Shown here in pieces: positions 9,940-14,027 of a DNA stretch of 64,000 nucleotides (position 1 is its first letter; every line of letters begins with the position of its first letter). This stretch comes from Eledone cirrhosa. Lineage: Eukaryota. The stretch is from contig OZ024747.1 of the NCBI GenBank assembly GCA_964016885.1, positions 66,278,001 to 66,342,000 on the forward strand, read 5' to 3'. Under the pieces are notes generated by a model, which saw only the letters and a list, made by a program, of their open reading frames with translations, did no database searches and was not told the DNA's origin. Both the position numbers and the translations under genes were made by a program.

Positions 9940-10170
9940 ATTATTAGCGGCGTATTATTCCCGTGAATTGCAATATATGCAAAAGATCATGTGACTAATA
10001 GTAAAATAATGGACGGCTGATTAGGAAAATACTCAACGGTAGAAGCCTGATGGTCTTGAAACGTTAAAAACTTGTGGCTCACTCGATATGCAAATTGAGG
10101 CTGCTCAGCCATTAATATGCATAAGGAAAGTATATACTTTCAAACGTTCAATCATCTGACAGGAAGGTAT

Positions 10171-10213
10171 ACGATGCTGACGATAGCTAAGAAGCTTGAA
10201 ACTAGTTCATCGT
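10171..10213 (+). ncRNA. Minimal type I hammerhead ribozyme (family A)
   Basis: acgatg-CTGACGA-t agc taagaa gct t-GAAA-ctag-TT-catcgt; 6-bp stem I, palindromic stem III. Confidence 0.7.
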
Positions 10214-11197
10214 TCTTTTGTCAGTGTTGAACAAAAGGGCAACGATGGTTGCCGAACACTGTACGGCTTAATTCGGGCTGTTTGTTTACAAACAAACCGA
10301 GCATTATAATAAATGTTCGGTAAACCCATACGTACATATATATATATGTGTGCATGTATGTATATATATACATACTACTGTACGTCTGTATACATATATG
10401 TATGTACGTATACATACTTATATTTAAGAATCAGCCGTACTAAGAGTGAGAAATTTCATTTCATTTCATTCTTTTCCATTTATATATATATATATATATA
10501 TATATATATATATATATATATATATATATATATATATATATATGTGTGTGTGTGTGTAGATAAATCTACCAAAAGTTTACGGTAGTGTCCAATCCGTATG
10601 AAGAACTCAATGTAATCCGGATATCATGAAAAGAGAAGATGCATTCAAAAACTACTTTCGGTGAAAATAAATATACCCATCAATTAAATTAATTTATATT
10701 CTTTTCATAGATGTATTTTTTTCACTAACATTCTTATCGTAAAACTTTAGTCACCTTAGATATTTGTATTGGCATTACTATTTTATAACAGCAACTGCTT
10801 GTATACCTTTTACTGACCACCTGACCTATTTTCACCCCTAAAATAAGCTTCAATTACTACTATTTTACCATTTGGCCAATTATTAATTTTCTATTGGTTA
10901 ATTCTAAACTTCTTACCAAACAGACAGAATATATTAGATCTTTGTTGGTTTTATTCAATGAACAAATAAAATTATTTCTGAGGTCAGCATAAGACCTATT
11001 TCTTCCCTAAAATAATCCTTCATTCATAATATTCTTTTCCATCCAAAACTGAAATCTACCTTCCTCTACCCATAATTTAAGGTTCTTCTACTACTATATT
11101 ACTACCTTGACCCTCACTATCTCTCTATTGGTCAATTCAAAACCTGTTCCCAAACAGACCTATTGTATTGAATCTTTGTTTTTTCAATAAACAAATA

Positions 11198-11339
11198 TCA
11201 TTATTTCTGAAGACAGCATATATATGTGTAGGTATGTATATTCCCTCTGATAGTTTGTATAAATATTGTACATAGATCTATAGAATATGCATACCAACTC
11301 TAACACATATATATCCTAGAAACGATCGTAAAATGATGA
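11198..11339 (+). ncRNA. Type I hammerhead ribozyme with ~100-nt stem II (family B)
   Basis: tcattattt-CTGAAGA-cagc atatatatgtg...cacatatatat ccta-GAAA-cgatcg-TA-aaatgatga; 9-bp stem I. Confidence 0.68.
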
Positions 11340-11559
11340 ATTTTTTTTAATATAAGGAACTGTTTCTTTGTTTATTCATTATTTTATTAATTTATATATA
11401 TATATATATATGTGTGTGTGTGTGTGTGTGTGTGTGTGTGTGTGTGTGTGTGTGTGTGTGTGTGTGTGTGTGTGTGTGTGTGTGTGTGTGTGTGTGTGTG
11501 TGTGTGTGTGTGTGTGTGTGTGTGTGTGTGTGTTGTGTGTGTGTGTGTGTGTGCGTGCG

Positions 11560-11760
11560 TGTGTGTGTATAATAGTTGAACACTGGAGGGTTATATCCGT
11601 AATAGTAGAGCACTCAGTTCATGGGACGAGTTTGGTAGAAGAAGTTCCACAACAGTTAGTTCACCATAACGAGAACAAATGTTTCACCTTATGCGGATCT
11701 TCATAAGGTGAAACATTTGTTCTCGGTATGGTGAACTAACTGTTGTGGAACTACTTCTAT
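11560..11760. mobile_element. PLE-derived terminal fragment with fold-back inversion
   Basis: ~50-bp inverted arms 11643-11693 / 11702-11752; homologous to the HHR-bearing repeat at 26482-26630. Confidence 0.6.
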
Positions 11761-11935
11761 ATATGTATATATTTAATCTGTTATATTAATATATATATAT
11801 ATATATATATATATATATATATATATATATATTAAAATAACAGATTAAAGTTTAAGCAAAGAATCACTTCGAGCCCTCTTTGGATTTTAATCTTCAAATT
11901 TATTATTATTACTATATATATATATATATATATAT

Positions 11936-12125
11936 ATAACAAAGGAATTGTGGTAAGGAACCAGATGGACCATAACACACCAGAGTACTCAATACTTAGT
12001 GTAGTAGAGTGGGAAATAGGAAAATGTATGACCCCGACGGCAGAGCTCATGCCGTTTCGACGGCTATTTCTGGACTCAAAATACCCGTCGAAACGGCTTG
12101 AGCTCTGCCGTCGGGGTCATACTTT
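11936..12125 (-). mobile_element. PLE 3'-terminal fragment (relative of the 20-25 kb element) with fold-back
   Basis: Homologous to the reverse complement of 25640-25780; inverted arms 12026-12063 / 12085-12122. Confidence 0.7.
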
Positions 12126-13463
12126 TTTCTCTCTCTCTCTCTCTCTCTATATATATATATATATATATATATATATATACGCACACACAAACGGTTAATT
12201 AACACTTATTTACATAAAACACAATACATATAGACATATAGCACCTGCATATAATCCGGAATTATTAGATGGGATAGAATCTAACCAGATAGAAATTTGA
12301 AGAACATACGCAGTATCAAATGTTAGACATTAGCATGCATATGACGAAGGACGCAAGCAAAGCAGGGTAAAAGTAGCAAGCTGCAAAAAAAAGTGTGTAT
12401 TTAGGTTGAAGTAAAAGACAGTACAAAGACGGGTGTTGTGTTGGTGTAAATGGTAGCACAGTGGTCCGGATAACCAAAGATGTGGATTCGACTCCCATGT
12501 ACGTCAATACGCATCTTTTTTTTCCATTTCTTCGGGGGTTCTTAACCCCACTATCAGGCTAAATAATTTCTTTAATTTCTTTAGTCAAAATACGGCGATA
12601 GCTAACATTTCTAATAATTTCAAATCCACTCGCTGTTTCGAAAATATTCTTACTCGATATATATATATATATATATATATATATATATATTATACATATT
12701 TATGCATAATAGCAACAAAACCTCTGCTTCAAGCAAACTACAATACTATATTATATATATATATATATATATGTGTGTGTGTGTGTGTGTGTGTGTGCGT
12801 GTGTGTGTGTATCAAATGATAAATAATTTTAGAGAATATTCCAATATAAAACAACTCACACTGAAATATGTTTAGCACAATTGAATAAAAGCATTCCTCA
12901 ACATATACAAAATAAACATAATGCATATAAACATTACAGCCTGAATATAACTGTATTTTCTTGACAGGGAAACTTCTATTATATATCATGTAATAGATTT
13001 ATGTATAAGACATTTATTTCTCTTTTATTAAATTTGACATGGACATATTATAAACCAAATATATATTCAAATATAGCATACGCATTGCGTTCTGTATCAG
13101 GTATTGTTTAACTTTCTTTTAATATAGCTTTATGTATCTCAGAAATTTATACATTATGATATATATAAACACAATTAAAATGAAACTTTGAAAAACCACT
13201 CAGTACATATATATATGTGTGCATGTATGTATATATATATACATACTACTGTACGTCTGTATACATATATGTATGTACGTGTACATACTTATATTTAAGT
13301 AACAGCCGTACTAAGAGTGGGAAATGAAATTTCGTTTCATATTTTCCGTTTATCGTTTTCGGTGCACCCGGCCGATTAACCCACTCGATATACAGATTGG
13401 GCTACTCAGCCGTTAATATGCATAAGGTAAGTATATACGTTCAACAATCTGGCAGGAAGGTAT

Positions 13464-13506
13464 ACGTTGCTGACGATAGCTAATAAGCTTGAAACTAGTA
13501 CAGCGT
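13464..13506 (+). ncRNA. Minimal type I hammerhead ribozyme (family A, second copy)
   Basis: acgttg-CTGACGA-t agc taataa gct t-GAAA-ctag-TA-cagcgt; GUA site; stem I differs from copy 1 but still pairs. Confidence 0.75.
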
Positions 13507-14027
13507 TCCTTTGTCAGTGTTGAACAAACGAGCAACGATGGTTGCTAGACACTACGGCTTAATATGGGATGTTTGTTTACAAACACACCGAGCATTATAA
13601 TAAATGTTCGGTGAATCCATACGTACATATATATATGTGTGCATGTATGTATATATATATACATACTACTGTACGTCTGTATACATATATGTATGTACGT
13701 GTACATATATATATATATATGTGTGTGTGTGTGTGTGTGTGTGTGTGTGTGTGTGTGTGTGTGTGTGTGTGTGTGTGTGTGTGTGTGTGTGTGTGTGTGT
13801 GTGTGTGTGCGTGAGTGCGTGCGTGTGTGTGCGTGCGTGCGTGCGTGCGTGCGTGCGTGTGTGTGTGTGTTGAGTAATGAAAATAGAGCAAAAGTCAAAG
13901 ATTCTTAATTAGTTCATTGTTCTATGATCATTACGATTATTTTCGATATATGTAAGGAGGCTGAATAGGCCAGTCGGATATCCCCACCGGGGAAAATTAA
14001 TAAATGAAGATAAAGATAAATTAATAC

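Follow-up and report, generated by a model that had tools for sequence, protein, structure and literature searches.

Two copies of a hammerhead-bearing 420-nt non-coding repeat in an Eledone cirrhosa intron: a candidate non-LTR retrozyme with Hydra-clade Penelope-like traits

Metazoan retrozymes that lack long terminal repeats (non-LTR retrozymes) are described from coral, mussel, and axolotl (Cervera and de la Pena 2020, PMC7229834), and animal retrozymes have been proposed to be non-autonomous derivatives of Penelope-like elements (PLEs) that arise from PLE pseudo-LTRs (Li, Clavereau, Pollet 2026, 10.64898/2026.07.22.740005). In that preprint, retrozymes and solo PLE pseudo-LTRs are argued to form one continuum, a PLE terminus gives rise to an independent unit, and the dispersed copies, called monomers, are often intronic; its data are vertebrate-centred, and cephalopods are not mentioned in the sections available. 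We analysed 64,000 nt of Eledone cirrhosa DNA (GenBank assembly GCA_964016885.1, contig OZ024747.1, positions 66,278,001 to 66,342,000, forward strand), hereafter the window. In a predicted intron, the window holds two copies of a non-coding repeat, each carrying one type I hammerhead ribozyme motif. With about even confidence, we read the two copies as scattered descendants of a non-LTR retrozyme, itself derived from a Hydra-clade PLE 3' end, with a productive array elsewhere and these loci being single-hammerhead dead ends.

The repeat comprises two segments, A and B, arranged differently in the two copies (window positions throughout):

10080..10483, + strand: copy 1, 404 nt, order B-A, approximately 0.96 of a 420-nt unit (BLAST to copy 2)
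10333..10483, + strand: segment A of copy 1, a hairpin of alternating purines and pyrimidines and then 65 nt of ordinary sequence
13203..13353, + strand: first, full segment A of copy 2 (self-BLAST)
13354..13381, + strand: bridge of copy 2, 28 nt, between the two BLAST alignments and absent from copy 1
13382..13622, + strand: segment B of copy 2, 241 nt, structured, holding the hammerhead and three downstream hairpins
13623..13707, + strand: segment A' of copy 2, an 85-nt exact repeat of 13203-13287 that forms the more-than-unit end

Self-BLAST of the window aligned 10080-10426 with 13382-13717 (88% identity, 349 columns, E 1e-121) and 10303-10483 with 13174-13353 (86% identity, 183 columns), and paired 13203-13297 with 13623-13717 inside copy 2. 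These alignments bear out the orders B-A and A-B-A' that an earlier, sequence-only reading had assigned to copies 1 and 2, respectively. Overall, copy 2 spans 13203-13707 (505 nt, A-bridge-B-A', 1.2 units). Segments A and A' are identical at 85/85 nt (13203-13287 and 13623-13707), giving a period of 420; the unit of approximately 420 nt claimed by the same reading is thus visible in copy 2 only, copy 1 being without the bridge. The bridge either belongs to the unit or represents a PLE-type tail at a junction. Copies 1 and 2 differ at 33/388 aligned positions. Given this extent of difference, the exact match of A with A' indicates that the overlap was made in a single copying event. The 5' and 3' breakpoints differ between the copies, and none falls at the predicted cut site. 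The GC content of the unit is 37%. Indeed, as had been claimed, the unit holds no substantial open reading frame (ORF): when it is circularised, no ATG-initiated frame exceeds 49 aa (+) or 53 aa (−).

Two further features of the copies were recorded. The differences between them on the sense strand (10080-10483 versus 13203-13622) comprise 13 A/G and 4 C/T changes (P 0.049, post hoc), and the same tally in four other repeat pairs was 15 versus 29; the A/G excess is a weak hint of A-to-I editing of an RNA intermediate. In copy 2, 5' of the hammerhead, positions 13418-13432 hold an ATG followed by an AG/GTAAGT donor-like site whose GT is altered in copy 1. A 5' intron is possible inside PLE pseudo-LTRs (PMC8557442).

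The hammerheads were located using descriptor scans and lie as follows:

10171..10213, + strand: type I hammerhead of copy 1, with helix I at 10171-10176/10208-10213 and the core from 10177
13440..13524, + strand: extended helix I around the hammerhead of copy 2, 23 bp in four stacks, with the core at 13470-13500

Four sites in the window matched the type I descriptor, two of them under strict terms (10177-10207 and 13470-13500, both +). The strict descriptor returned 0 matches in each of 20 shuffled windows, in agreement with the earlier count of one hammerhead per copy. Similarly, a 31-nt core pattern occurred at two sites in the window, where 0 were expected, and gave no matches in bacterial and archaeal genomes, as expected. 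Judged by the sequence descriptor, neither copy has lost any part of the catalytic core, which runs CTGACGA, T, AGCT-4-nt loop-AGCT, T, GAAA, CTAG, T, with T next in copy 1 and A in copy 2. Helix II is AGCT/AGCT in each, with U on either side. Cleavage is predicted after U10207 in copy 1 and after A13500 in copy 2; the GUA cut site proposed from the sequence therefore holds for copy 2, the triplet of copy 1 being GUU.

The earlier remark that stem I has changed and still pairs also stands. The stem reads acgatg/catcgt in copy 1 and acgttg/cagcgt in copy 2, such that both sides are altered and an A-U pair corresponds to U.G. Helix I has 6 bp beside the core and extends via internal loops to 23 bp. 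In this extended helix, 19 of the 23 pairs are unchanged, three changed on one side, one changed on both, and none is broken, a count that is biased toward conservation as the helix was predicted from both sequences together. Positions 15.1-16.1 form a perfect palindrome, ACUAGU, and helix III is predicted to be unable to close in the monomer; a duplex of ACUAGU between two copies is predicted to have 6 bp and −4.8 kcal/mol. Helix III being a bare palindrome, the modelled hammerhead likely cuts only as a dimer. Support from Rfam is weak. Neither motif reached the gathering score in the window scan and, in a post hoc search of 121 nt, copy 2 matched Hammerhead_HH9 at 19.7 bits (gathering 52, E 0.0069) and copy 1 had no hammerhead match.

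Segment B folds with z = −4.8 and −5.2, and B alone spans −4.1 to −5.8. None of 45 background windows reached z ≤ −4, and the z values of four local ends, PLE or hammerhead-bearing, were +1.3, +0.4, −1.7, and −3.1. The value for the whole circular unit, z = −7.8, is inflated by segment A; approximately half of A consists of alternating purines and pyrimidines, and the folding of this segment therefore does not count as separate evidence. Self-pairing of the unit RNA is predicted to be 69%. Compensation was evaluated by taking the structure from one copy and testing it on the other, using reshuffled substitutions as the null. Changes on both sides with pairing kept were found at 2 pairs versus 0.27 expected (P 0.026 and 0.023), and broken pairs numbered 5 and 4 (P 0.006 and 0.07 for their deficit). 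A change of this kind is seen in a hairpin:

13531..13546, + strand: hairpin of 6 bp in which one pair is doubly changed between the copies, A-U to G-C

The intact core and the long compensated helix I suggest that the ribozyme fold has been under selection.

At their 3' ends, the copies meet simple sequence:

10481..10558, no strand: 3' junction of copy 1, a (TA)n and then a (TG)n tract
13708..13870, no strand: 3' junction of copy 2, a (TA)n and then a (TG)n tract

Thus, (TA)n adjoins the 3' ends of 2/2 copies; positions ≤3 nt upstream of such a tract make up 0.5% of the window. The same succession of (TA)n and then (TG)n follows most of the inspected local PLE ends. Segment A itself opens with a TA run, and purine and pyrimidine alternate at 80/84 steps. 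The alternating part is unexpectedly conserved, with 1/83 mismatches versus 32/305 elsewhere (P ~0.004, post hoc). Read-through at the birth of the element likely captured a microsatellite flank, which became segment A. Rfam miRNA matches over A were rejected, as they were far below gathering and caused by the TA/TG alternation.

No target-site duplication was found at either copy. Going upstream from copy 1, 122 nt of unassigned flank come first, then a repeat resembling a short interspersed nuclear element (SINE), whose target is duplicated, and an opposite-strand RTE remnant; the candidate reading in which copy 1 runs upstream into an ORF was rejected, these elements occupying that position instead. 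The 5' flank of copy 2 is unique sequence, and the flanks of the two copies are unrelated. The SINE-like repeat (9720-9950, with others near 6946 and 51421) has an 18-nt duplicated target with one mismatch and adjoins the old RTE remnant (−).

These flanks bear on a DNA-level origin, in which one insertion was duplicated locally and the pattern was completed by slippage within a microsatellite-like flank or by a long target-site duplication. The copies lie 3.3 kb apart in the same orientation, A is microsatellite-like, and there is no third copy in the window, all of which would suit such an origin. Nevertheless, we consider it very improbable: one copy is flanked by the SINE and RTE remnant and the other by unique sequence, a target-site duplication is missing, A matches A' exactly though the copies are approximately 9% diverged, and paired double changes occur between them.

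To place the hammerhead among those of PLEs, we used the listing in File S2 of PMC8557442, in which we counted 25 Hydra-clade and 6 Chlamys/PLE-X families by eye, taking duplicate rows once; the Neptune, Poseidon, and Nematis hammerheads are missing from this table. As listed, helix II is flanked by U on either side in 14/25 Hydra-clade versus 0/6 Chlamys/PLE-X families, and the cut follows A or U in 21/25 versus 0/6. ACT..AGT in helix III is found in 16/25 Hydra-clade families. All three traits are present in the hammerhead of the unit, and the GUU/GUA difference between the copies falls within the same pattern. Segment B ends 122 nt past the cut site, within the range of the ends of the listed Hydra families as read from the listed positions. 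According to the same source, nearly all Hydra families target (TA)n, and Hydra elements occur in O. bimaculoides. The 10-nt helix II motif of the unit is absent from the supplement of Craig et al. (PMC8557442), as far as that was available. Hydra-clade ORFs also occur in this window, showing that the candidate mobilising clade is present in the genome. A link to these local elements by DNA similarity was rejected, as none was found. Based on the hammerhead traits and the junctions, the unit was likely inserted by a Hydra-clade reverse transcriptase-endonuclease at (TA)n tracts.

Such traits could also mark plain PLE ends. In this main alternative, which is plausible but which we regard as somewhat unlikely, an autonomous Hydra-type PLE outside the window left both copies as solo pseudo-LTRs, its 3' ends truncated on the 5' side, copy 2 being a partial tandem of two truncated ends and the bridge a PLE tail. 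The Hydra-type hammerhead and (TA)n junctions fit this account, as do the short 5'-truncated PLE ends of 44-400 nt that are common in the same intron. Partial tandems with a 30-40-bp tail are described as standard PLE anatomy (PMC8557442), and the upstream A of copy 2 ends (13353) near the 3' end of copy 1. However, two independent truncations ≤28 nt apart would be required, and the 3' ends of the copies lie approximately 65 nt apart on the unit. Moreover, multi-part PLE ends in the neighbourhood are inverted pairs (11636-11759, 11799-11938, 12006-12142, 10543-11395, and 20222-25700), whereas copy 2 is a direct partial tandem, and a strong fold is missing from the local PLE ends.

No Hydra ORF remnant was found in 9000-15000 either. 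In that interval, there was no PLE protein signal in searches using tblastn with the local PLE proteins and a hidden Markov model from 60/120 homologues, other PLE clades not being profiled. Nor did 9000-15000 contain an ORF with reverse transcriptase plus GIY-YIG between or upstream of the copies. Attachment of the unit to a PLE ORF, which the sequence-only reading had named as part of the outcome that would speak against a retrozyme, was accordingly seen at neither copy, and at these loci the unit is not an autonomous PLE. The hammerheads are 3,293 nt apart on one strand, and the longest stop-free stretch between them is 120 codons. The possibility of a full PLE between the two was rejected based on the missing protein signal and the assignment of 2,445/3,293 nt to other sequence: the unit itself, microsatellites, the termini of further repeat families, and a stretch resembling a tRNA. 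The last (12435-12506) scores 29.9 bits, just over Rfam gathering, and is likely a SINE head or pseudogene; ARAGORN did not call it and called no tRNA gene in the window.

For the retrozyme reading, we propose the following course. A tandem array elsewhere in the genome would be transcribed through; adjacent hammerheads would pair by their ACUAGU palindromes and cut out 420-nt monomers, which a host ligase would circularise. The PLE enzyme would then nick (TA)n DNA, and reverse transcription would begin within A, at a point differing per copy. Just under one round would give copy 1 and 1.2 rounds copy 2, with the intact cut site passed in both. Breakpoints that lie off the cut site and differ from each other, together with the exact 85-nt overlap, fit internally started copying of a circular or multimeric template. 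Indeed, a PLE enzyme is reported to start reverse transcription internally in vitro (PMC11167929). The direct tandem, unlike the inverted neighbouring PLE ends, and the breakpoint pattern thus favour a PLE-derived retrozyme. As each locus has one hammerhead, no monomer would be released, and the loci would be dead ends as circle producers. By analogy, the unit likely resembles, and works like, a metazoan non-LTR retrozyme.

The breakpoints could also be produced without any circle. The unit might be a short linear non-autonomous PLE (mini-PLE) with ends fixed near the bridge, copied from uncleaved linear or tandem RNA, the hammerhead being a passenger. Copy 1 is almost exactly one unit from the start of B, the breakpoints disregard the cut site, and helix III is predicted not to form in the monomer. 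In addition, head-to-tail copies have been described for non-autonomous PLEs (MRC1, PMC8557442), and hammerhead cleavage is dispensable for PLE insertion in vitro (PMC11167929). Copy 2 begins at A, however, and not at B, and the intact cores and long compensated helix I suggest selection on the ribozyme fold; we judge the mini-PLE distinctly unlikely.

A number of observations weigh against a retrozyme born from a Hydra-clade PLE. Neither locus has a tandem pair of hammerheads (0.96 and 1.2 units), contrary to the tandem hammerhead units of the earlier claim, and the 64-kb window holds two copies only, nhmmer having found no third copy of B in it. The compensation test is based on two sequences alone, with four to five predicted pairs broken, and the deficit of broken pairs is not significant with the structure of copy 1 (P 0.07). 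The ensemble predicted for the monomer has the palindrome paired with C3-U4-G5 (p 0.6-0.9), which is an inactive shape. Among predicted frog retrozyme dimers, 1/9 was cleaved (10.64898/2026.07.22.740005), and a PLE in vitro inserted uncleaved RNA, the hammerhead not being needed (PMC11167929). As for the Hydra signature, 11 of the 14 U/U families are from Hydra magnipapillata and hence not independent, and U.U at helix II also occurs in an axolotl retrozyme (PMC7229834), so the signature is not exclusive. Segment B has no nucleotide similarity to the untranslated region of any local PLE (best E 0.2), and the listed hammerhead of Hydra-1_Obim differs from that of the unit, so that neither comparison points to the parent element. 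The (TA)n tracts could be post-insertion growth from the TA runs in A. Finally, the abundance of short PLE ends means that near-unit lengths can arise by chance. Taken together, the earlier assignment to a retrozyme or a solo PLE pseudo-LTR holds for the size, the 37% GC, the type I hammerhead, the lack of an ORF, the strong, compensated fold, and the more-than-unit direct copy, and is not supported for tandem hammerheads, and hence for monomer or circle production, at these loci. The dimer-type helix III, the Hydra-clade signature, the (TA)n junctions, and the sense position in the intron are additions to that reading.

The retrozyme class is already known, and the family described here adds a clade-level lead to the mobilising enzyme. 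In the literature searched, including passages of PMC13282606, PMC10886601, PMC6765202, and PMC6962438, we found no retrozyme from octopus, squid, or another cephalopod, although the supplement of PMC7229834, which lies outside that scope, may bear on this; nor did we find a non-autonomous Hydra-clade element. In the portion available, 235 Hammerhead_1 matches are listed for the giant squid but not analysed (PMC6962438), and the words hammerhead, ribozyme, and retrozyme are absent from the main text of a 2026 O. vulgaris repeat annotation (PMC13282606). Which autonomous element mobilises animal retrozymes, and the birth of the latter from PLE ends, have so far been argued from co-occurrence and frog sequences. 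Clade-level marks (hammerhead style and (TA)n targeting), together with open-frame Hydra-clade elements in the same genome, make the partnership directly testable. A more specific version of the retrozyme reading, which is unlikely in our estimate, is a cephalopod retrozyme that still carries its birth marks. The 3' end of a Hydra-clade PLE and a captured microsatellite flank would have become an independent 420-nt circular replicon with a long compensated helix I, a loop-less helix III acting only in dimers, and a near-invariant alternating hairpin that would be the start site of the Hydra enzyme for reverse transcription and the site of (TA)n annealing. If this were true, the mobilising clade of an invertebrate retrozyme would be named, and a ready pair for in vitro work would be at hand. 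Two isolated copies do not show activity.

The surroundings of the copies are as follows:

2588..48601, + strand: predicted 46-kb intron of a G-protein-coupled receptor (GPCR) gene, with GT/AG ends; both copies lie inside it, in sense
2334-2587, 48602-48908, 49732-49863, and 53730-53933, + strand: GPCR exons (tblastn with Octopus bimaculoides protein P0121)
21428..23542, − strand: Hydra-clade PLE frame, 704 aa, with RWR, DKT, YRDD, CxCX5C, CxxC, and CxH
47095..48309, − strand: second Hydra-like frame, broken

The four exons match the Octopus bimaculoides GPCR at 60-93%, and the gene (2334-53933) is somatostatin-receptor-like, judged by the name of the closest match. A further possibility is that the two sense hammerheads, transcribed in the same pre-mRNA, might pair with each other and cleave the GPCR intron. 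This intron is rich in retroelements. The 704-aa frame has an inverted partial copy on the + strand, the element spanning 20222-25700; its arms (2168 nt) are 100% complementary, and it is young. Neither of the two PLE proteins was assigned to a Pfam family, so the clade call rests on motifs, of which RWR, DKT, CxCX5C, CxxC, and CxH define the Hydra clade (PMC8557442). At the 3' end of the same element, a hammerhead-like motif with a U3-A8 core and long helix II was seen by eye only and missed by the descriptors. Another hammerhead-like motif with a long helix II lies at 36210-36258 (−), in a region with z −3.1. A second family of PLE-like ends (26585-26614 (−) and 11636-11759) has the same U/U Hydra-type hammerhead style and no linked ORF; one of its copies is an inverted pair inside a microsatellite. 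The ends of four repeat families, each an inverted pair, occur at 10543-12142 within 1.6 kb of microsatellites, an insertion hotspot. Two pairs of long interspersed nuclear elements lie in opposite orientation, 38185-42497 with 55432-59744 (4313 nt, 100%) and 42954-45456 with 61463-63965 (2503 nt, 98%); they contain frames of 1141 aa and 1223 aa and reflect recent activity or a feature of the assembly.

Compared with the metazoan non-LTR retrozymes of PMC7229834, the unit is likewise non-coding, has a GC content below 50%, one type I hammerhead per unit, and a self-paired fold. Its 420 nt is near the mussel units (350-390 bp) but just over the 170-400-nt RNA range; at 37% GC, it falls within a size criterion of 150-450 bp with GC <50%. 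Helix III resembles that of the axolotl HHR_Amex1 in its one pair, palindromic tetraloop, and predicted dependence on a dimer, HHR_Amex1 cutting well only in that form, and the U.U at the base of helix II is common to the unit and HHR_Amex2 (PMC7229834). Unlike metazoan retrozymes, the unit has no array at these loci and carries a microsatellite-like segment; its helix III is of the dimer type, whereas most invertebrate retrozyme hammerheads work as monomers (PMC7761336).

With the Hydra-clade PLEs of PMC8557442, the unit shares U flanking a 4-bp helix II, ACT..AGT, a cut after A/U, a (TA)n 3' junction, and a hammerhead near the 3' end. In contrast to them, it is without an ORF, its helix III is loop-less (1-3 loop bases and 3-4 bp in all 25 listed families), and its helix I has 23 bp versus the 3-10 listed. 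Its sequence differs from Hydra-1_Obim, as listed, and from the local Hydra elements. Like the minimal PLE hammerheads of PMC4209133, it has a palindromic 15.2-16.2 region, an extra base after A9, and predicted activity as a dimer; unlike them, it has no G10.1-C11.1 pair and has a long helix I rather than one of 4-5 bp. A PLE ORF may be bordered by two same-strand hammerheads at a distance of approximately 3 kb (Cervera and de la Pena 2014, PMC4209133), whereas the 3.3 kb between the hammerheads here holds none. The LTR retrozymes of plants, which have type III hammerheads in two LTRs and a 4-bp target-site duplication, differ from the unit, which has type I topology and no such duplication. 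Within the scheme of the preprint (10.64898/2026.07.22.740005), the loci fall short of the 'active' class, which needs two consecutive hammerhead units, and copy 1 fits the 'monomer' class, defined by >80% identity over 80% of the unit.

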